Assembly: GCA_037443035.1 (NCBI GenBank)
Contig: JBBIPC010000004.1
Location: 25,502-89,501, forward strand
Length of the DNA: 64,000 bases
DNA from: Chthonomonadales bacterium
Lineage (GTDB): Bacteria; Armatimonadota; Chthonomonadetes; Chthonomonadales; CAJBBX01
Direction: 5' to 3'
Part shown: piece by piece, positions 38,434 to 50,130 of the stretch
Layout: every line of letters starts with the position of its first letter
How positions within the stretch are numbered: position 1 is the stretch's first letter
Program-made: the position numbers and the translations under genes
The notes under the pieces: model-generated
What the model was told of the DNA's origin: nothing
The model's database searches: none
Seen by the model: the letters and a program-made list of their open reading frames with translations, nothing else

Positions 38434-39948
38434 TCAGTGTTTCTCCGTCGGCATAGGTTGCGAACCTGAATAGTCGGCCAGTACCCGCACGATGCGATCC
38501 TGGATAGCCGTAGCATCGGCATTCCGGCACGCATGGTTGTTCATGAGGATCACGAACAAGTGTTCCTCCCCGGACTTCGCTCGAACGTAACCGGACAGGG
38601 AACTCACGTTGGAGACGTAGCCCGTTTTCGCCCGCACCTGGCCCTCGGCGGCTGTGCCTCGAAGCCGATTGCGAAGCGTTCCGTCCACCCCAGCAACAGG
38701 AAGTGATGCATACCAGTAGGCTCTGTGCTCGCGCTTGGCCATATAGCGAAGGAGGATCCGCAGAACGTTCGCTGTGACGAAGTTCATGCGAGACAAACCG
38801 GATCCATCTCGGATAATCAGGCCGTCCTCCGGCGCACCGATGCCACGCAGCCACTCGACCACAGCTTCCCGACCCGCTGACACCGTTCCTGCGCCTCTTC
38901 GGACTAGCCCTATGGTTCTCAACAGGCACTCGGCGCCAAGGTTGTCGGAGGGCTTGTTGACCAAGCTGATGATCTCCGACATGGGTCTGCTCTCGAATGA
39001 TGCGAGAACGCTGGACGCCGAAGCAGGAGTGGCACCTTCCGTCGCTTTTCCGCTCACGACGACGCTGGCTGCGCGAAGCCTCTGCCTCAGAACCTCGGCT
39101 GCATACAGCGCAGGACGCTCAACCGTGACTGGAATCGGCCGCGCATCGGCAGAACCTTCGAGCAGTGGAACGTCGCCCTCTACCATGACGACATCACGGC
39201 CCAGCACTCGCTCCACCGTCAAGCTGCTCGAGCTGCCTTTCGCCACGGTCCTTGTTCGGTTCATCACCGCGATACCGCTCGGCCTGGGCGTGATGGTGAC
39301 GCTCGCCTTCATCCCTGCTCGCTTGCCGGGGCTTACCGTGACCTGCAGGACGTTTCTATTCAGATTCAGCCCGCTCACCGGTGCGGAATAGTAGTAGCTC
39401 ATGTCATCCCACGACCAGCCGTAGCCGTACTGCGGCGGCGGGAAGCATGTGCCATCGCCGACGATCCTTCCCTCGATTCGCCGCACGCCGCGCCTTACCA
39501 TCTGTTTCACGAGTTCGTCTACGGCACCGCTATCGAGAAACGGATCCCCACTACCCTTCAGGTAGACGTCGCCTCGCAACGTCCCATCATGCAGATTGGC
39601 CGTGGCAGTCACGACGGAAGTGCGGTACCGGTACTCCGGCCCAAGCAGCACGAGCGCTGCCGCGGTCGTGATGAGCTTCTGATTGCTTGCGGGAATTAGC
39701 AGAAGGTCAGGGTTGCGCTCGTACCACACCGCACCGTCGGATAGTGACTCGACGATCACAGCTTGTATACCTCCGCGAAGCTGAGGCGATCTGAGGGCGG
39801 TATCGATCGCTTCGACGACGAAGGGAGGAGCAGCCGACTGCTCGACGGTGTTAGGTGCGTCTGCCGCCGCCGTCGCAACGCCAAGCAGCAGACAGAGAAG
39901 AAGAGAACAGGCACCAAGCCGCCGCTTCCGACCGGCCTGTCCGATCAT
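38434..39948 (-). CDS. dacB: D-alanyl-D-alanine carboxypeptidase/endopeptidase (peptidase S13, PBP4-like)
   Basis: Signal peptide; SxxK (PASNQK), GSGDP, SxN (PSDN), DGSGLSR, GVDGTL, KTG. Confidence 0.95.
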   Translation of the reverse strand: MIGQAGRKRRLGACSLLLCLLLGVATAAADAPNTVEQSAAPPFVVEAIDTALRSPQLRGGIQAVIVESLSDGAVWYERNPDLLLIPASNQKLITTAAALVLLGPEYRYRTSVVTATANLHDGTLRGDVYLKGSGDPFLDSGAVDELVKQMVRRGVRRIEGRIVGDGTCFPPPQYGYGWSWDDMSYYYSAPVSGLNLNRNVLQVTVSPGKRAGMKASVTITPRPSGIAVMNRTRTVAKGSSSSLTVERVLGRDVVMVEGDVPLLEGSADARPIPVTVERPALYAAEVLRQRLRAASVVVSGKATEGATPASASSVLASFESRPMSEIISLVNKPSDNLGAECLLRTIGLVRRGAGTVSAGREAVVEWLRGIGAPEDGLIIRDGSGLSRMNFVTANVLRILLRYMAKREHRAYWYASLPVAGVDGTLRNRLRGTAAEGQVRAKTGYVSNVSSLSGYVRAKSGEEHLFVILMNNHACRNADATAIQDRIVRVLADYSGSQPMPTEKH

Positions 39949-40292
39949 GCCTCGAACAACTCCTGCAGCGTTGGGCAGAGAACCCTGGCAATGAGCCCTT
40001 CAGGGTCGGTCACCAGCAAGAGCCGGTTAGCTGGGGGACGCTGCAGTAGCGTAAGGACATCCTCCACGACATAGGGGTCCTCGTCGCGAAGCAACGTGAA
40101 CTCGGTCTCATTCACCATGAGCAACCTGGCGTACTCGCCAAACGTCATCCGCGTAATTCTGCTCATGACGGAGTTCGTGTAGATGGTGATGTGATCGTTC
40201 AGGAAGAACGACCGAGTCAGTTCATCCTGATGACCAAAGGAAACGTCCAGCCAGTCGTCCTCAGCGTCATAGTCTAGTGCGATAGAGGTCAT
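39945..40292 (-). CDS. Hypothetical protein, weakly DUF2283-like N-terminus
   Basis: 115-aa acidic ORF, LDYDAEDDWLDVSF; 4-nt overlap with dacB. Confidence 0.6.
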   Translation of the reverse strand: MTSIALDYDAEDDWLDVSFGHQDELTRSFFLNDHITIYTNSVMSRITRMTFGEYARLLMVNETEFTLLRDEDPYVVEDVLTLLQRPPANRLLLVTDPEGLIARVLCPTLQELFEA

Positions 40293-40330
40293 ATTCCTGT
40301 CCCGTAGTGCGCGGACACGCAAGAGGCCAG

Positions 40331-40660
40331 CTAGAAGCGTTCGAACCGCTCCACGTTGATGACGAACGCGACCGCACCCCCTACGAGGACCTTGACGGGG
40401 GATGGCATGAACGCGCCCACCGGCGCCGCATCTGGCGGAAGGACGTTTACGAACTGCTCACGTGTCTTGCAGGACTCCCCAATGACACTCAGCACCTTGT
40501 CGAGCTGATCTTCCTCGACACCGATCAGCAAGGTCACGTTGCCCTCTCGCAGGAACCCGCCCGTGCTGCCGATCTTGGTGAACTTGAAGCCGTTTCGCAG
40601 TAACGCTTCAGATATCTTGTTCTTGTCCCGATCGTGGACCACGGTTAGGACGAGTTTCAT
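40331..40660 (-). CDS. pstA: Cyclic di-AMP receptor PstA/DarA (PII-like, DUF970)
   Basis: MKLVLTVVHDRD, TKIGSTGGFLREGNVTLLIGV, VGGAVAFV; AGGAGG RBS; downstream of tmk as in Firmicutes. Confidence 0.93.
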   Translation of the reverse strand: MKLVLTVVHDRDKNKISEALLRNGFKFTKIGSTGGFLREGNVTLLIGVEEDQLDKVLSVIGESCKTREQFVNVLPPDAAPVGAFMPSPVKVLVGGAVAFVINVERFERF

Positions 40661-40717
40661 GGATAACCTCCTAGTCTGGGAGGCGCACCCTCCCGTTCCG
40701 TCACGCACGCCCTCCGC

Positions 40718-41332
40718 TCAGGTCGCAATCCCTCGCGTGCACAACTTGCGCCACAACTCCGCATGCACGCTATCCGGTGACTGACTACCGTCTATAACCA
40801 CCACGCGCCGTGGATTCGAAGCAGCTACCGCGAGATACCCATCACGCACGCGACGATGAAAGTCTAGCGGCTCCTCTTCCATGCGGTTCCGATCCTGTTG
40901 TCGGGTCAACCCCAGTTCGGGCGGTACATCGAGCACGAATGTGATGTCGGGCTCCAGACCCGCAGTCGCAAACACATTCAGCTCGGTCACGGTGCTGAGA
41001 TCGAGGCCGCGCCCATAGCCTTGGTATGCGACAGTCGAGTCGATATAACGGTCGCAAACGACGACGCAGCCATCCAGTACTGCAGGTCGGATGACATCGT
41101 CCGTGAGTTGCGCCCTAGCAGCGAGGAACAGCAGTAGCTCGGCACGCGCGCCCATCTCCGAACTCTTCTGCAGCAACAACCGCCGTATTTCCTCGCCCAG
41201 ACCGGTCCCGCCAGGTTCCCGCACGAGAACCACCGACCGCCCTTGCTGCTCTAGCCGCTCTCTTAGCCTCTGCGCCTGGGTCGTCTTGCCGGCGCCCTCG
41301 ATGCCCTCCAGAGTGATGAGTGCGCCGTTCAT
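40718..41332 (-). CDS. tmk: Thymidylate kinase
   Basis: [38 protein letters not shown]. Confidence 0.97.
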
Positions 41333-42972
41333 CGGTTAGGCAGGATGCGCACACGACGTCTCGGCTCGGTCCCGACGCTTTCCGACAGCAGTTCGAGGCG
41401 TTCTATGACTTGATGTTGTAGCCTCCGCACGTAACTGTTCTGTGGCTGCAGCTCGATCGGCTCTCCTGTTTCCCGTACGCGGCGGGCACCTTCCTCCGCC
41501 TCCCGGAGTGCGGCTTCAGTATCGCCGCGTTCCAAGCCGGAACTCTGAAAGACCTCGCGCATGGCTGACGCGATCTGTGCATACGTGTTGCTCCGCACAA
41601 CATACGTCGGCAAGCCCCTAGCCGATCCTTCACGCATGCGTGGTGGTTCTCTTCGGTAGCTAGCCTTCAATGCGATGATCACATCTGCGTCTCGGATGTC
41701 ACGAGCGACTACCGCCGGCAAGCCACTCTCCATGATGGCACGGTCGAGCCTACTTCTATTGACTCCATATGGAAACACGCGCAATGCTCGTGCCGTCCGT
41801 TCGAACGCTCCAGTACCGCGTCGGCCGATCCGCACAGCACCATCCGCGTCGTCTGCATCGTCGTCATCCTCCAACGCCGGTCCTATGTTCGGAGCGCCTG
41901 CCGAATCCTCGAACACGCGCAACCCGCCGATGGGCGCGACATCGCCTCGCTCAACGACTTCGACGTCTCCGAAGCTATTGCGCACGCGAATCTCGGGCCG
42001 CGGGCGCTGGCCGCGTAACATTCGATCCACCGTCTCTGCCACGTTGTGGTGTATGGCCAGCTTGTCCACGTCCATGATCTCGATCACCACGTCGAACGTC
42101 GGCGGCGCCTTCCGCTCCAGAACGGTCTTCTGCGTTCCGCGGCGGCGTGCTTCCTCGTCGGACAGAGTCACCGCGTGAATGCCGCCCACCAGGTCGCTCA
42201 GGGTCGGATTCATGAGGAGGTTCTCCAGGCTATGCCCATGAGCCGTGCCTATGAGCTGAACGCCACGCTCGGCAATGGTCCTCGCAGCAAAAGCCTCGGC
42301 TTCTGTACCGATCTCGTCAATCACCACCACCTCGGGCATGTGGTTCTCCACAGCCTCTATCATGACAGCGTGCTGCAGAGACGGTTCGGCCACCTGCATC
42401 CTTCGTGCGCGCCCTATGGCCGGGTGTGGAATGTCTCCGTCTCCAGCGATCTCGTTGGAAGTGTCAACAACCACGACGCGTTTGCGAGCCTGTTCCGATA
42501 GGACGCGCGCTACTTCGCGCAGCTTCGTTGTCTTCCCCATGCCGGGCTTACCCAACAACAGCAGGCTCTTGCCTGTTTCGACCACATCCTGGATGATGTC
42601 AATGGTTCCGTACACCGCACGGCCGATCCGGCACGTCAGCCCGACGATGGTGCCCATACGGTTGCGTATCGCCGAAATCCTATGGAGCGTTCGCTCGATA
42701 CCCGCACGGTTGTCCTTGCCGAATGCGCCCACCCTTTCGACGACGTACTGGATTTCGTAATCACCGACGGTAGTGCTGCCGAGTTCCACAACTTTTCCCG
42801 GGAAACGTGCCTCAGGAACCCGCCCCAGGTCAATGACGATCTCCAGAAGGTCCTCCAGAGAACCCAACCTCTCGAGCGGGTCCCGTATGGTGGGCGGAAG
42901 CACCTCCAGGAGCTGATCCAGATTGTCCGTGATGCGTTGTTGCTTCAAGACGCCTCCTGTGCTTCTTGTCAT
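41329..42972 (-). CDS. Ycf45/SpoIIIAA-like AAA ATPase with C-terminal R3H domain
   Basis: [50 protein letters not shown]3[13 protein letters not shown]...[12 protein letters not shown]. Confidence 0.88.
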
Positions 42973-42977
42973 CGTCC

Positions 42978-43049
42978 ATCATACCGGTTTGCAGCCATCT
43001 TGGCAAGTGTGGCACGCGGCTTGACGCCTGTCGCAACCTGTGGTACGGT
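42978..43049. promoter_or_regulatory. Back-to-back sigma70-type promoters
   Basis: Minus strand TTGCCA, N17, TATGAT (-10 at 42983-42978); plus strand TTGACG (43021-43026), N17, TG-extended TACGGT (43044-43049). Confidence 0.55.
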
Positions 43050-43093: not shown

Positions 43094-44614
43094 ATGGGCG
43101 CCGATTCTCTATGGCATGTACCAGCCGTGTCTCTTCTCGTCTGGATCGCTGGGTTTCCCTTCAGCAGTCCGTATCACCCTCGCCGTCTTCTCAGACCACT
43201 GCTCATAGGTGCTCTCGCTGCCCTGACGGCCTACCTCATAACCCTCCCGCACGAGGGCGTTTTCCAGCCGGGACAAGCGCTTGGTTGGGGAGTCGTGGCA
43301 GGGACCGCAGCAGCCACACTGGCCTTCCTGCCGGTCGTCGGTGTAGCCACGGATGCTCAGGCCGGCCATCCCCGCGCCTCTGCAAGCGCTATTGCGCCGA
43401 TCTTGGCGTGTCTCTGGCTTCTGCTACGTCTGCGGTTCGCGGATCGGATCTTGGCTGTGGGCGGGGTCGGGGCAGGGTGGACGGTCACTGCTTTCCTCGT
43501 CGCCGCAATGGGTCAGTCCGGACGGGATTCCAGGCGCATGCGAGCAGTAGCCACCATGTCCTCAGTCGTCGCGACCACTCTTTGCTTGCAGCTTGCCCTT
43601 GCTTTCGCGAGAGCAGGTAATCCCCAGACAGCTCACCACTGGACAACTCTTCTGCTCGATCTGAGCACCGTCGGTGTTCTCACTGTGTTACTGGCATCCG
43701 TGATCCGGGACCGGCCATCCTCCGTAGCGGCCGCCATTGTCCGTGGTGCGCTGTCAGCAGTAGCCATCGCTGCGGGCACTGGTCTGCTGCTCCACGCGTT
43801 CGGAGCTTGGCTACGTATCGAGCGTTCTGTTCCAGCGCTCACCGCTGCCATCATATGCGCCGTGGCAGGTGCCGTCGCCATGGGCGCCATGGCTGTCAGT
43901 AGACAAGCCAGAGTCGTCTTATGGGATGCCGCGATACTCGTCCTCCTAGGCTGCGCCATCATAGCACCGGCCATGCAGATCCTTGTAGGAACGGGGGCGG
44001 CCATGGCTGCCCTGTCGGCGCTGTTCGTCCTCACGGCGATGGTACTGCCGAGCGCTCTGGAATCAGCGGAGCTGGCATCGGATCGGGCGACCTTGCTCCT
44101 GGCGGCGGCGCTCCTCCCTCCTGTGGCACTCCTCGTTGTTCGCCTGGCTAGCAATACGGCGGATGGTGTCTTCATTGCCTTCGGTGTGACCGACCACGTT
44201 CAGACACTAACGTTGGTTCTCTTCGCAGTGCTTCCTGGAATCATTGCAGAGCTACCGGGAACGCGTTGGCCATGGCTCGGTTCGATCGTTGCGCTGGCAG
44301 CAGCGACAGTCGCACCGGCACTCGCAGCAATCGTCTGGGGAGGCCGCGTGGCCTACTCGATGCTCGTCGGTCTGGGGTTGTCCGGCATGCTTGTCCTTTC
44401 GTACGACGATGGCGAGGACTCTCGCCAATGGGTTCCTCTCTTGAGTATCGTCATGATGGCCGCGGTCCTACATGGTGTGCCCGTTGTCTTGCATGCGACG
44501 GCTCTGCCGCGAAGCATACGTGCCGCGGTCGCTATGGCCATCTTGCTACTCCTCGTCGTTCCACCATGGGTCGTTCGTGCAAGACGCACGCGTGCTTCTC
44601 ACGGAGGGGCGTGA
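43094..44614 (+). CDS. Hypothetical polytopic membrane protein (roughly 15-16 hydrophobic segments)
   Basis: GGAGG RBS before ATG 43094; Ala/Leu/Val-rich throughout; stop abuts the next ATG (TGAATG). Confidence 0.75.
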   Translation: MGADSLWHVPAVSLLVWIAGFPFSSPYHPRRLLRPLLIGALAALTAYLITLPHEGVFQPGQALGWGVVAGTAAATLAFLPVVGVATDAQAGHPRASASAIAPILACLWLLLRLRFADRILAVGGVGAGWTVTAFLVAAMGQSGRDSRRMRAVATMSSVVATTLCLQLALAFARAGNPQTAHHWTTLLLDLSTVGVLTVLLASVIRDRPSSVAAAIVRGALSAVAIAAGTGLLLHAFGAWLRIERSVPALTAAIICAVAGAVAMGAMAVSRQARVVLWDAAILVLLGCAIIAPAMQILVGTGAAMAALSALFVLTAMVLPSALESAELASDRATLLLAAALLPPVALLVVRLASNTADGVFIAFGVTDHVQTLTLVLFAVLPGIIAELPGTRWPWLGSIVALAAATVAPALAAIVWGGRVAYSMLVGLGLSGMLVLSYDDGEDSRQWVPLLSIVMMAAVLHGVPVVLHATALPRSIRAAVAMAILLLLVVPPWVVRARRTRASHGGA

Positions 44615-47600
44615 ATGGAAGGCAGAGTGGTGCGTTCGCCTCGGCCGTCGTCGTGGGCGACGGCCATGGGCCTCGTCGCGCTCGCCGTTCTCACGGCGAT
44701 TGGAGTTGCCAAGGAAGAACCTGTAGGAGCCATCGAGGGAGTTGTCTTCTGTGCCGACGATGGCAGTCGAGCCCCGCGTGCAGTAGTTGTACTGTCTAGT
44801 ACTTCCCGCACGCTGCATGCGCGCACGGATACCTCCGGTCACTTTCGCCTCGGCCACGTGCCCGCTGACGCATACGGTCTGAGCGTAACGACGGATGCCT
44901 ATGAGGGAATGGCCGGCCCGGTGCACATAACGGAGGGCAAGACGACACACGCGACTCTCCGCCTCCAACGGTCACTCCCCAATCTCGCCCTACGCACAAT
45001 GTCACACACGTGGCTGCCGACGGAGAGGGGTATGGTCCAAGCGTCCGGTTACCTGCCACCTCCAGACCAGCAGACCAGGAGCATCGAGATTCACGTTCGG
45101 CCCCTGGACACGGACCGTCTACTCCGTTCGAGCCGAGGGGTCATGGACCTCCACGACGCTCTCGCAGGCGACGCGTCCACCGTGGCGCGACTCAGCCGCG
45201 CCGCTCTGCATCCGGTACGGACGATCACCTTGCCATTACCGACCACTAGCTGGGAAGGGTACTACGACCGCACAGTGAAGCTGGACCCGTTACCGCCAGG
45301 GGTGTACCTGCTAACTGCACGATGTGGCACCTATGCGGCAGCAGCGGTCGTCCACGTCACTGACCTTGCGATCCTTGCCAAGGCGGACCGCAAGCAGATC
45401 GTCGTTCTCTGTACTGACGTTGCGACGGGCAAGCAAAGGCCGGGGACCATGGTGCGGCTCGCCGACATGCGCCAGGGACCACGATCGGACGAGGCCGGTG
45501 TCGCTAGACTCGCGTCCACGTCTCGCGATGGCGCACAGCCGATCGTAGCTCGGCATGGCACGAGCGTTGCCTTCACCACCCTGCACGTCTGGGACGACAC
45601 GACGGGCATGGTCATCGGAGCCTATACGGAACGTCCGGTCTACCGTCCTGGGCAACGTGTCTACTTCAAGGGCATCGTGCGGAGACGTCAGGGCTCGAGC
45701 TACACCGTTCCCGCGCCGACCCGGGTGACGGTTCGAGCCGAGGATCCCGAGGGTGTCGTATTGGCACGCCTGACATGCCGCACGAACGATTTCGGAGCCT
45801 TCAGTGGTTCCTTCGATCTGACCAATGAGACCCCGACGGGTGCAGGTACGATCTTCTTGTCTGCAGGTGATGCCACTGCTATCGTGGATGTGAACATCGC
45901 CTCCTATGCCAAACCTCAGGTTCAGCTCACCGTCAAGCCGATTCGAAACACTGTCATTGTCGGAGAGACGGTCGAGTTCGACGTCACAGCCGCCTATTAC
46001 TATGGAGCGCCGTTGCCGGCTGCAGAGGTTTCCTACACCGTGTCGGTGTCTCCGGCGTGGGACTGGCACTTGGAGCCTGATGCAGAGGACGAACTCTCTG
46101 ACAGTGCATGGATGCGACGTTACGACACTCTCACTGACCAAACGCTCCGAGAAGGCACCGTGCGCACCAGTTCCGACGGACGTGCCAAGATCACGGTTCC
46201 ACTGCATGTTCCTTCTCGACCCGATGCCCCCCAAGCTCTGAGGATTCGCCTGTACGCTAGCACAACAGACCCGGCCTATGGTTACGCAGAGGACGAAGCC
46301 ACCGTGACGGCGTATCGTGGTTCGCTCCGTTTGCATGTGAATCCTGGCTCGTATCTGATCCGCCAGGGTGTCGCGACCCCAGTCTCGGCCGAAGTCACCG
46401 ACCTCGCGGGCCAGCGCGTTTCCGGATCTCCAGTACGCTTCGAGCTCTTCCAAGACACACGAAAGGATGGCTCGGTCATCCAGGCAAGGCTAGTGGCCAC
46501 AGCCGAGGGCACCTCCGACCGGCATGGCATCGCCAGCAGCCGGATCATCGCTCCGGAAGGCGGCGAGTACCGCCTCGTAGCGAAGGCCATGGACACTGGA
46601 GGCCGAACGGTCTTCGATCACTGCTACCTCTGGTCGAGTGGCCCAGGGGAGCTCAGGCCTGAGGACACGGGAATGCGTCTCGACCTCTACCCCGACAAGC
46701 GTCGCTATCGCGAGGGCGACACAGCCCACGTCTTGCTACGGAGCAGTTGCATCGGTGCTCGGGCGCTCGTGACCGTCGAGGCGCCTGACATCCAGCAATA
46801 CTTCACGATTCCTATCCGACACAGCAGCACTGTCCTCGCCATACCTGTGCGCAGACTACCCGGCCGCCGGATGGAGCTGGCCGTGGGTCTCATACAACGA
46901 AAGCGCCTCCTCTCTGCAAGTGTCGTGTTATCAGTCGAGGCGCCACGACGTACTCTCAGTATCCGCGTGATACCGGACACACCAGTACACCGGCCCGGCG
47001 ACACCGTGCGGCTGCGCGTCGAGGCGCGCGACAGTAACGGCAGGCCGGCTCCAGCAGAGGCCTCCCTCGCGCTCGTAGACGAGTCCATCTACGCGGTCAT
47101 GGAGGATCAACCGCGACTGCTGGAAAGGACGTTCTACCCACGTCTATGGTCCTCGGTTGCCACGGCGTGCTCATGCGAAGAGACTCTGCTGGATGCCGAA
47201 GGTGCTGGTGCCAAGGGCCTCAACGCAGCCGCCATCCGACGACGTTTCGCCGATACGGCCGTATGGATACCGCACATACGAACCGACAAGAATGGCCAGG
47301 CCCAAGTCGTGGCCAGACTGCCGGACAACATCACACGCTGGAGGGTTACAGTGCGAGCCCATACGAGGGAGACCTACCTCGGCTACGGTCGCGGGAGCGT
47401 CACGGCGACGCTACCATTTCACGTTCGCCTCGATGCGCCACGGTTCCTCACCGCTGGTGATACGACGCGGGTGACCGCTGTACTGCGCAATGGCACTGCG
47501 TCTGTCCTCTCCGGTAGAGCAACCCTCCTCCTGGCAGGCGGCCTGCGTAACGAGGAGCCGGCCACGAAGTCCTTCATACTGGCGCCTTCGAGTAGCGGAA

Positions 47601-49309
47601 CGATAACTTGGAGCCTATCGGCACGGGACGCTGGACCTTCGCAAATTCGCGTCGTCGCTGCAACGGATCGCCCGACCATGACCGACGGAATGCTGACGCG
47701 CCTCATGGTTCGGCCGTGCGCCAGGGAGCGTACATGGACCGTGGCAGGCGTGCTCGAAGGCGACGTCGTCCACCGCATCGCACTCTCGCAGGACGCTAGT
47801 GTCTACCCAGGCAGTGTCACCGTCCGCCTGACGCCTTCCGTGCTCGCTTCGGTCGGCCCTGGTCTCGACTATCTCGTACGGTACCCCTATGGCTGTACGG
47901 AACAGACGGTCAGCAGTTTTCTGCCCGATATCCTGGTCGCCCGGTTGCTCCGCAATCTGGATCCTTCCACTGCTGCGGAGCTTCGAAGCACCCTGAGCCG
48001 CCAGCATCTGCAGGAGCTTCCGGCCATGGTTCGGGCGGGCATTTCGCGCCTCAATCACATGGCGAACCGAGGCTGGGGGTGGTGGGGATCGGACACCGCC
48101 GACCCGTGGCTCACAGCCTACGCCACAATGGCTCTTGGCCAGGCCACCAGGGATGGCTACTCGGTTCCGCAACACCTCATCGAACAGGCAGCGGAGGCCT
48201 GCAAGGCGCTTAGCACCAAGGCTCGCCCCGACACGGCAGCATTCCTGTCGTACGCCCTGGCCCTGGTCGGGGGCAGGCGTCTTCCGACGCTGCCACTGAA
48301 GAAGATGGGACCCACGGGACTCGCATTCACCCTCCTGGAATGCCGTGTCCGTCAAGATGGTGGACCGACGGCCAAGAATGCCTACGACCGGCTCGCAGCG
48401 AAGATGATACGCTCCGGCACTGTCGCGTATTGGACGACGAGCTCTCGTGATGTTGAGAGCGATGTGCTATGCACTGCTCTCGGGCTCCAGGCATTGCTCC
48501 AGTACGCACCCTCGTCACCCGACATAGAGCGCTGCCTCCGCTATCTCATGATGGCACGAACCGATGACTGTTGGACATCCACGCGCGATACAGCGTTCGT
48601 TCTCACAGCACTGGTGGACTATGTCCGCGCAGTTCCTCTGGCGGTACGGGTACCTCGAGCCGTAGACGTAGTCATCAACGGCAAGTTGGCACATCGTTTC
48701 GACCTGACAGCCGCACGGAGGAACCCCACAGCGCTTGTTGCACGACTGCAAACCACATCGCTCCTCGCCGGACAGAACAGACTTGAGCTTCGTGTCATCG
48801 GCAGAGGGACCCCTTTCTATTCTCTTGCAGTCAAGACGTATCTTGCCAAGGATATGGCCGGTTCTACGTCTGGAACGTCCCATGTTCGCGTCATACGCAC
48901 ATACGAAGTGATCGAAGACGGCGCACACGTGTCCTCTCGAACAGGCCCTGCAGCCGGAACGTTACGTGGCCCGGTGAAGGCTGGAACTCCTATTCGTGTG
49001 AAGCTCACTATTCACGCCAAGGACAAGCTACGATTCGTGCTCATCACGGATCCATACCCGGCCGGCTTCGAACCGATCGTGTCGTCGGAAGACCCCTCGT
49101 GGACTGGCACGTGGTTCAGTGCCATGGACTTGCGCGACGATCATGCGGCAATCTTCGCCCACGAGGTGCCAAGGGGTAAGTTCGTCGTAGAGTACTACGT
49201 CCGCGCCGGTCGCCTGGGTCGCTATACAGCACTTCCCACGCGAGTCGAGAACATGTACGACCCATCCGAATGGACTGAGGGTGCTGCTGCTAGCGTGGAG
49301 GTTCGCTGA
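44615..49309 (+). CDS. Bacterial alpha-2-macroglobulin family protein with N-terminal carboxypeptidase-regulatory-like domain
   Basis: Signal peptide; MG2 YTERPVYRPGQ; LALVDESIY; RRRFADTAVW; LPDNITRW; thioester YPYGCTEQT; W..TRDTA; VENMYDP. Confidence 0.93.
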   Translation: MEGRVVRSPRPSSWATAMGLVALAVLTAIGVAKEEPVGAIEGVVFCADDGSRAPRAVVVLSSTSRTLHARTDTSGHFRLGHVPADAYGLSVTTDAYEGMAGPVHITEGKTTHATLRLQRSLPNLALRTMSHTWLPTERGMVQASGYLPPPDQQTRSIEIHVRPLDTDRLLRSSRGVMDLHDALAGDASTVARLSRAALHPVRTITLPLPTTSWEGYYDRTVKLDPLPPGVYLLTARCGTYAAAAVVHVTDLAILAKADRKQIVVLCTDVATGKQRPGTMVRLADMRQGPRSDEAGVARLASTSRDGAQPIVARHGTSVAFTTLHVWDDTTGMVIGAYTERPVYRPGQRVYFKGIVRRRQGSSYTVPAPTRVTVRAEDPEGVVLARLTCRTNDFGAFSGSFDLTNETPTGAGTIFLSAGDATAIVDVNIASYAKPQVQLTVKPIRNTVIVGETVEFDVTAAYYYGAPLPAAEVSYTVSVSPAWDWHLEPDAEDELSDSAWMRRYDTLTDQTLREGTVRTSSDGRAKITVPLHVPSRPDAPQALRIRLYASTTDPAYGYAEDEATVTAYRGSLRLHVNPGSYLIRQGVATPVSAEVTDLAGQRVSGSPVRFELFQDTRKDGSVIQARLVATAEGTSDRHGIASSRIIAPEGGEYRLVAKAMDTGGRTVFDHCYLWSSGPGELRPEDTGMRLDLYPDKRRYREGDTAHVLLRSSCIGARALVTVEAPDIQQYFTIPIRHSSTVLAIPVRRLPGRRMELAVGLIQRKRLLSASVVLSVEAPRRTLSIRVIPDTPVHRPGDTVRLRVEARDSNGRPAPAEASLALVDESIYAVMEDQPRLLERTFYPRLWSSVATACSCEETLLDAEGAGAKGLNAAAIRRRFADTAVWIPHIRTDKNGQAQVVARLPDNITRWRVTVRAHTRETYLGYGRGSVTATLPFHVRLDAPRFLTAGDTTRVTAVLRNGTASVLSGRATLLLAGGLRNEEPATKSFILAPSSSGTITWSLSARDAGPSQIRVVAATDRPTMTDGMLTRLMVRPCARERTWTVAGVLEGDVVHRIALSQDASVYPGSVTVRLTPSVLASVGPGLDYLVRYPYGCTEQTVSSFLPDILVARLLRNLDPSTAAELRSTLSRQHLQELPAMVRAGISRLNHMANRGWGWWGSDTADPWLTAYATMALGQATRDGYSVPQHLIEQAAEACKALSTKARPDTAAFLSYALALVGGRRLPTLPLKKMGPTGLAFTLLECRVRQDGGPTAKNAYDRLAAKMIRSGTVAYWTTSSRDVESDVLCTALGLQALLQYAPSSPDIERCLRYLMMARTDDCWTSTRDTAFVLTALVDYVRAVPLAVRVPRAVDVVINGKLAHRFDLTAARRNPTALVARLQTTSLLAGQNRLELRVIGRGTPFYSLAVKTYLAKDMAGSTSGTSHVRVIRTYEVIEDGAHVSSRTGPAAGTLRGPVKAGTPIRVKLTIHAKDKLRFVLITDPYPAGFEPIVSSEDPSWTGTWFSAMDLRDDHAAIFAHEVPRGKFVVEYYVRAGRLGRYTALPTRVENMYDPSEWTEGAAASVEVR

Positions 49310-50130
49310 TGCGCAGCCATGCCGGCTGGCTGCCCATAGCCATCGGAGCGACAGCGTGCGCGATTGTCGCAGGTAACCTCCTAAACACCGTGCACTCTCA
49401 TGGCTTTCCTCGGCACCTGCTGGCGTCATACACAACGCCGCTACGCGGCAGGACCGCTAGCCAACGGCACAACGCTACATTGGCCGCTCGAGCGCTGGAC
49501 CGAGCGGTGGTCATGCCAGGAGACACTTTCTCGTTCAACCGTCGCGTCGCCAGTTGGACGAGAGAACGCGGCTACCTGCCGGCGCCAGTGAGTTACGAGG
49601 GCGTTCTTGCCGAATCCGTCGGGGGCGGTGTCTGCCAGGTCTCGACAACACTCTACAACGCGCTCTTGCTGGCAGGACTGTCGGTTGTGGAAAGACATCG
49701 CCACGCTGTGGCGCCCGGCTACGTACCACCTGGTCGGGATGCCGCTGTTGCTCAAAGCGCTTTGGATCTACGCTTCGTGAACGCACTCGGTGGGCCGTTG
49801 CTGATCCGGTCGGAGTGCACGTCCAGCTCGCTCGCCGTTCGGCTCTACTCCACGCAGCCGCCGCGGTACGCAGTATCGCTGATCACTCGCGTTCTCGATG
49901 TCGCTCCGCCGCGGCCGCATGTGCGGGCTGAACATCTCTCCCATTCGCGTCGTCTTAGCCACGTGTACAGGCCCTCCCGTGGCGTCATGGGTTGGCATGT
50001 GGTAACGTATCGTTGTTATATGGCCGGCGACAGAGAAGTGCGCCGAGAGCTTGTATCGTCCGATACCTACCGAAGTGTCGACTTTGACATTGGCATGACG
50101 GAGCAATTCGCCGATCCGCGTATGCGGTAG
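49309..50130 (+). CDS. VanW family protein with C-terminal G5-like segment (putative L,D-transpeptidase)
   Basis: N-terminal anchor; HN..LAA, PGDTFSFN, GY..AP, GGGVCQVSTTLYNA, ERHRH, YVPPGRDA, DLRFVN; ELVSSDTY. Confidence 0.9.
   Translation: MRSHAGWLPIAIGATACAIVAGNLLNTVHSHGFPRHLLASYTTPLRGRTASQRHNATLAARALDRAVVMPGDTFSFNRRVASWTRERGYLPAPVSYEGVLAESVGGGVCQVSTTLYNALLLAGLSVVERHRHAVAPGYVPPGRDAAVAQSALDLRFVNALGGPLLIRSECTSSSLAVRLYSTQPPRYAVSLITRVLDVAPPRPHVRAEHLSHSRRLSHVYRPSRGVMGWHVVTYRCYMAGDREVRRELVSSDTYRSVDFDIGMTEQFADPRMR

Follow-up and report, generated by a model that had tools for sequence, protein, structure and literature searches.

A conserved Armatimonadota locus joins genes for a thioester alpha-2-macroglobulin, a short VanW protein and a membrane protein of predicted pyrophosphatase fold

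The original trap-and-repair proposal for bacterial alpha-2-macroglobulins (A2Ms) is said to be that of Budd in 2004. The subject here is a three-gene locus that varies this theme, found in a 64,000-nucleotide stretch of a Chthonomonadales genome (GenBank assembly GCA_037443035.1, contig JBBIPC010000004.1, positions 25,502 to 89,501 of the forward strand; below, the window, numbered from its first letter); the genes encode a polytopic membrane protein (MP), a thioester A2M and a short VanW protein. Type I A2Ms are lipoproteins and the Type II A2M needs a transmembrane partner, MagB holding and stabilising MagD (PMC3735191, PMC5764988). In the available sections of PMC5764988, the trap-and-repair role of A2M with PBP1c is still put forward as a hypothesis; its basis is gene adjacency. 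In Clostridioides difficile, the VanW cysteine is required for L,D-transpeptidation (PMC11348318). Membrane pyrophosphatases (mPPases), the fold to which MP points, are described as primary ion pumps (PMC6882861).

The trio is a conserved envelope module of Armatimonadota and apparently an undescribed variation, real and conserved, on the pairing of an A2M with a wall enzyme. We put the chance at about one half that it forms an envelope unit that traps and mends at the inner membrane, on its outer side, with MP as docking scaffold. In such a unit, the thioester A2M would capture proteases entering the periplasm, the bait cleavage and covalent trapping being modelled on Type I A2Ms (PMC5764988). 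The short VanW protein would likely add 3-3 cross-links to the nearby wall, on the analogy of L,D-transpeptidation by Ldt4 and Ldt5. MP, a putative dead pyrophosphatase, would hold both partners on its conserved outer face and, as we infer from the role of MagB in Type II systems, would dock and stabilise the A2M in place of the missing lipid anchor. The features of the locus are as follows.

43094-44614, + strand: MP, a 506-amino-acid (aa) open reading frame with a predicted membrane-pyrophosphatase fold and a conserved face that is probably periplasmic
44612-44617, + strand: MP stop abutting A2M start, TGAATG, read in the sequence
44615-49309, + strand: thioester A2M, a 1564-aa open reading frame with a Pfam domain series
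44654-44728, + strand: hydrophobic helix at the A2M N terminus (residues 14-32), then the conserved E34-x-P36-x-G38, from hydropathy and alignment
44732-44968, + strand: A2M CarboxypepD_reg-like domain (residues 40-118, Pfam), which marks this A2M subfamily
47894-47905, + strand: CTEQ thioester motif, C1094-Q1097, read in the sequence
49307-49311, + strand: A2M stop overlapping VanW start, TGATG, read in the sequence
49309-50130, + strand: short VanW, a 273-aa open reading frame with an N-terminal hydrophobic helix, VanW domain (52-180) and G5-like tail
49621-49644, + strand: GGGVCQVS motif with the putative nucleophile C109, read in the sequence

The translational coupling of the three genes, claimed in an earlier note made from the letters of this DNA, is borne out by both junctions, and start/stop overlaps of 4 bases (counted at the nearest start codon) recur in relatives at 37/75 MP-A2M and 40/66 A2M-VanW junctions, a frequency that, judged from the junctions compared, is beyond chance. 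The single shared promoter of the same note found no counterpart: a scan returned no sigma-70-like site on the + strand, the only site lying on the - strand. A GTG at 43040 is disfavoured as the MP start, the family alignment beginning at the ATG at 43094.

Conservation was assessed in 201 Armatimonadota genomes with three profiles (MP, E <= 1e-18; A2M N-terminal domain, E <= 1e-15; short VanW, E <= 1e-70). MP was found in 104 genomes, the A2M domain in 98, the short VanW in 96 and none of the three in 94; genomes with MP include 96 of the 98 with A2M and 95 of the 96 with short VanW. Most of the mismatches vanish on inspection. Six of the eight genomes with MP alone carry a divergent A2M beside it (five in line, one convergent), another has an A2M-VanW pair elsewhere, and one is still MP-only; the sole VanW-only genome has a full trio with a divergent MP. 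The two A2M-only genomes comprise a gene at a contig start and a match to a 641-aa non-orthologue, and all four inspected of the nine MP genomes below the VanW threshold contain a diverged short VanW.

The gene order is usually kept. Among 101 loci with MP, 63 read MP-A2M-VanW (one with only a contig-end fragment of VanW), 13 read MP-A2M up to a contig end and three end at MP; of the 85 loci that can be judged, 63 thus have the intact order and 70 have MP directly before A2M. The trio is therefore conserved elsewhere; the earlier note had named a lack of such conservation as what would refute it. Of 26 VanW loci on metagenome contigs with 7 kb or more of upstream sequence, 19 are preceded by MP and A2M and 7 by neither. 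The best named relatives are Armatimonadota (Chthonomonadales, Fimbriimonadales, Abditibacterium and Armatimonas), and 12 Bacillota loci in the list of relatives have a long VanW with no match to A2M or MP in the DNA examined. One record labelled Actinomycetota has the full trio (L205:2-6821), perhaps through mis-binning or transfer. At L041:2413-4186 (G016), two genes lie between A2M and VanW, the first an ankyrin-repeat gene (Pfam) and the second clustering with the first. In family f33 (L134, L136, L137, L140, L141, L146, L147, L149) the trio is dispersed: MP stands before uvrD (after namZ in two cases) or close to a short-chain reductase gene, while the A2M gene precedes either the Flp-pilus gene cpaB or a SIS/CBS gene.

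These counts bear on the alternative that survives best, itself unlikely: that the three are co-regulated but physically independent envelope-stress genes, A2M trapping proteases and VanW cross-linking the wall each by itself and MP doing a separate job in the same response. Independence would suit the dispersal of the operon in 15/85 loci, the detachment of VanW in 7, and the presence in both A2M and VanW of a hydrophobic anchor of their own. It sits poorly with the joint presence or absence of the trio in nearly all 201 genomes, even where the genes are unlinked (in 5/5 dispersed operons tested, both A2M and short VanW turned up at other sites of the genome), with the 4-base overlaps that recur at both junctions, and with a conserved MP surface facing the compartment in which A2M and VanW should lie.

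The A2M shows the Pfam series CarboxypepD_reg (40-118), bMG3, MG2, bMG5, A2M_BRD, A2M, TED and bMG10, and matches the Salmonella A2M 4u48 with E 5e-22. Sequence and Pfam both agree with the earlier description of a 1564-aa A2M with an intact CTEQ and an extra N-terminal CarboxypepD_reg-like domain, and CxEQ is kept in 80 of the 88 orthologues that cover the site. Its description as exported holds only in part: the single N-terminal hydrophobic helix is there, but no lipobox accompanies it and the anchor is likely uncleaved. A lipobox is seen in 0/66 aligned N-termini (a looser scan gave 2/67 pattern matches), an AxA lies near the helix end in 10/66, and E-x-P-x-G is conserved directly after the helix, which likely serves as an uncleaved membrane anchor. 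At the other end, the A2M tails inspected have no conserved terminal Lys or Gly-Gly acceptor.

The VanW domain (PF04294, residues 52-180) is recognised with E 4e-45 and 153 bits against a cut-off of 27, and the C-terminal part matches the solved G5 domain 6oh1 with E 1.6e-4, in keeping with the G5-like tail and intact GGGVCQVS reported earlier; the protein falls below the NCBIfam cut-offs for resistance-cluster VanW. C109, H132, D144 and D153 are invariant in 65/65 sequences, so the catalytic residues are kept, either Asp being a candidate for the Cys-His-Asp triad. The host genome holds one A2M, two VanW genes and an intact HppA elsewhere, with no YkuD match and no pbpC above cut-off. Its second VanW gene is unlinked to the trio, a 507-aa open frame with a long N-terminal region that the short VanW lacks. 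The short VanW proteins group in one clade (support 0.865), separate from the long ones, with R48, W83 and S95 as invariant residues of their own, and the long VanW also occurs in genomes without the trio. A figure legend in PMC11348318 includes a Chthonomonas VanW and names no paralogue for it.

A joint loss of the thioester and the VanW Cys was considered and rejected, all six thioester-less loci checked keeping the Cys. In one family (L277 and L278; G201 and G194), the A2M is without its thioester and GGGVCET takes the place of GGGVCQ in VanW, the Cys itself being unchanged.

This retention of the Cys favours a second, doubtful alternative, in which VanW links A2M (or MP) covalently to peptidoglycan, as YkuD-type enzymes do with Lpp, and the A2M would be mainly a membrane-to-wall strut with the thioester secondary. 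The loss of the thioester in 8/88 orthologues, the invariant residues peculiar to the short VanW, and a genome without YkuD, in which the second, long VanW could do the ordinary cross-linking, are all compatible with tethering, and protein anchoring is a common role of L,D-transpeptidases (PMC12729407). Yet the thioester is kept in 80/88, the A2M tails inspected offer no conserved acceptor, and in the available part of PMC12729407 anchoring is reported for YkuD enzymes, not VanW.

The partner expected from Type I systems is missing. PbpC (TIGR02073) is above cut-off in neither the host genome (0/1) nor 41 genomes of the order (0/41), and in 1 of 201 genomes of the phylum; no orthologous A2M was seen beside pbpC, a pairing that the earlier note had named as a refutation. 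The single genome with pbpC (G198) is in none of the three profile lists, its pbpC following an A2M of another type, and this locus (L322:10776-18000) is the only canonical A2M-pbpC pair seen in the 201 genomes. The anti-correlation between the trio and pbpC that the note had suggested agrees with the count but carries little information; the test was set aside as uninformative because pbpC is nearly absent phylum-wide and because all 16 loci of other A2M types (16/16) also lack VanW and MP nearby. At one of these loci (L306:6116-11248), a different, 1466-aa A2M type has an AMMECR1 gene directly before it; the single AMMECR1 of the host genome (L244:1399-2067, G000:C5) lies apart from the trio and carries at its N terminus a short extra stretch, perhaps a signal peptide.

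MP had been described as a protein of unknown kind with about 15 transmembrane helices. Hydropathy gives 16 hydrophobic segments and the AlphaFold model 17 long helices (pLDDT 88.3, pTM 0.91), and profile and structure both assign it an mPPase fold. An alignment of 26 sequences gave the first pointer to a degenerate membrane pyrophosphatase. A profile of 84 sequences reaches the plant V-PPase (4a01/6afz) with E 5e-11, the next unrelated chain following at 0.008, and aligns with 30 HppA sequences colinearly over 470 columns (hhalign probability 97.6); in whole genomes, many of its next-best matches below the true orthologues are HppA genes. The model matches mPPase structures with Z scores of 27.9 (root-mean-square deviation 3.0 over 453 residues) and 26.9, the next entry scoring 10.5. 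The relationship escapes less sensitive comparisons: Pfam and NCBIfam searches with single sequences missed it, PF03030 gave no match in 26/26 members scanned singly, the 26-sequence profile missed it among PDB sequences, and hhalign of MP with the single HppA of the host genome gave a probability of 0.3. Two MP queries of the ESM Atlas reached best scores of 0.82-0.84, taken as leads only. In a word-indexed protein search, the MP profile found only MP itself, and one member found 44 relatives without a Pfam domain, unnamed or called ‘hypothetical’. In three HppA genes (G048:C45, G063:C30, G075:C5), with frames of 1105-1125 aa, a large insertion splits the PF03030 match near profile position 298.

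What the fold has kept and lost is clear from the alignment. The six catalytic-loop motifs are present in 27-30 of 30 HppA sequences and in 0/84 MP sequences. Over the aligned span, 51 polar positions are the same in 90% or more of HppA sequences; MP keeps none of them, 33 being deleted and 18 replaced, and it is therefore almost certainly no pump; the 13 positions common to both families are all Gly, Pro or Leu, residues of packing. The Asp/Lys motifs of the hydrolytic centre, the coupling funnel and the ion-gate residues are gone, no conserved charged residue is left at the former gate, and the deletions coincide with the catalytic segments, all four cytoplasmic ones of which are missing. 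On its model, MP takes the mPPase fold, yet it lacks the catalytic apparatus and stands outside the enzyme family; by its residue pattern it is a new pseudo-enzyme family.

Conservation in MP is found elsewhere. With helix limits set by hand and sidedness borrowed from mPPase topology, 31 of 116 outer-loop positions reach at least 50% consensus versus 2 of 133 in the inner loops, and the outer loops have nearly constant length. Since the catalytic side of mPPases is cytoplasmic (PMC6882861), the conserved surface of MP would be the outer, periplasmic face, an assignment we infer by analogy. It includes R173, R350, R355, H368, Y369, K418, R473 and K476, none of them among the residues common with HppA; in the MP of the window itself, several consensus residues are replaced.

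An active MP would make use of this face, either as a receptor for the shape of cleaved A2M that switches VanW on or as a protein whose Arg/His-rich surface binds or translocates an anionic wall precursor. This is less probable still, even though the polar residues listed are not inherited from HppA, mPPase helices move during the cycle (PMC6882861) and 17 helices are large for a mere anchor: there is no conserved cytoplasmic surface for an inward signal, the former gate is without a conserved charged residue, and the window's copy departs from the consensus. Lower again, we would rank a damage-sensing relay, in which MP is the receptor for a complement-like A2M, reads its protease-cleaved form and directs VanW to cross-link at that spot; were it true, bacteria would have a damage sensor whose core, MP, would be the first pseudo-enzyme with an mPPase fold. 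That MP is a divergent pyrophosphate-driven pump energising the module was rejected, the match to mPPases over 453 residues notwithstanding, as nearly excluded by the loss of every catalytic-loop motif and conserved polar residue, and an intact HppA lies elsewhere in the genome.

Several observations weigh against the trap-and-mend unit with MP as scaffold, which we continue to prefer. The thioester is lost in 8/88 orthologues from several lineages in which the linkage is retained, so covalent trapping is not indispensable, and since the A2M carries a hydrophobic helix of its own, a scaffold may be unneeded. The C. difficile assay showed activity for only three of seven foreign VanW proteins (PMC11348318), and activity of the short VanW is accordingly not guaranteed. 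The module is missing from about half of the phylum; in 15/85 loci no A2M follows MP, and in 7 the MP-A2M pair stands without VanW next to it. Operon members served to build the profiles, which makes part of the co-occurrence true by construction, and the counts, drawn from related genomes that are not independent, are descriptive and carry no statistical test. Finally, 7 of the 31 conserved outer-loop positions of MP are Gly or Pro and the inner loops, with their deletion scars, are poorly aligned, so the contrast between outer and inner loops, and with it the outer-loop conservation, may be partly structural.

The surroundings of the trio add no further members. Flanking rsfS, TPR, AAA-R3H and tmk genes were rejected as parts of the module, their recurrence being limited to close kin. 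A divergent run on the - strand (39945-42972) consists of a gene for an AAA/R3H protein, a thymidylate-kinase-like gene identified from its own sequence, and genes for a cyclic-di-AMP receptor (PF06153) and for a protein of 125 aa without a Pfam match. At 38434-39948 (- strand), 3.1 kb upstream of the trio, lies a Peptidase_S13 D-Ala-D-Ala carboxypeptidase (Pfam); enzymes of this type are a source of tetrapeptide donors for L,D-transpeptidases, and a gene of similar size, matched by size and place only, occupies the position in three close relatives.

Literature searches found no description of an A2M-VanW arrangement with or without MP, as the earlier note had supposed, the matches for A2M with VanW proving unrelated on their titles and the opening of their abstracts; these searches left subscription journals largely outside, and supplementary operon tables could list it. 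They found no A2M work on Armatimonadota and no catalytically dead family of the mPPase fold, and for VanW with Armatimonadota the matches listed were unrelated surveys; VanW, macroglobulin and pyrophosphatase are all absent from the main text of the Lipocone paper (PMC12419801). The coupling of a second, unrelated wall cross-linker to a thioester A2M across the phylum would be independent support for trap-and-repair, and because VanW can be assayed simply by fluorescence and has one catalytic Cys, the idea becomes testable. Likewise, a widespread mPPase-fold family that lacks the catalytic residues and is conserved on the opposite face would be a case of the fold being put to a use other than pumping.

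Set beside the mPPases (HppA and V-PPase; PF03030; 8b37, 5gpj, 4a01), MP has the same bundle of 15-17 helices, a colinear profile match and the 13 packing positions; it differs in its length, about 500 aa against about 700 or more, and in conservation that has moved to the opposite face, with catalytic segments, funnel and gate lost. The mPPases form homodimers through helices 10, 13 and 15. The short VanW has the membrane helix, the Cys/His/Asp of the VanW domain and the G5-like tail of the L,D-transpeptidases Ldt4 and Ldt5 of C. difficile (PMC11348318). At 273 aa it has no counterpart of the long N-terminal region in which Ldt4 and Ldt5 carry PG4, and it belongs to a separate clade from a diderm phylum, tied to an A2M and putatively active.

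The mag operon of Pseudomonas aeruginosa (MagD with MagA/B/F) likewise encodes a non-lipoprotein A2M together with a membrane protein. The A2M of the trio has CTEQ, whereas Type II A2Ms lack CxEQ; three genes stand against six, the membrane partner is polytopic and seemingly pyrophosphatase-derived, and a wall enzyme is included. MP has no Pfam match that would join it to the Mag partners, a comparison made without a direct homology search. The trio is not a mag operon. There is a likeness also with the Type I A2M-PBP1c systems (yfhM-pbpC of E. coli, Sa-A2M of Salmonella), which have a CxEQ A2M with the same domain series, its gene directly before that of a peptidoglycan cross-linking enzyme, and the same proposed trap-and-repair logic (PMC5764988). 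They differ in that the partner here is of VanW type, unrelated to PBP1c, with no pbpC adjacent; the A2M has no lipobox (0/66) and an extra N-terminal CarboxypepD_reg-like domain; and a third gene, for a 17-helix membrane protein, is added. The trio is thus likely analogous, and not homologous, to yfhM-pbpC.

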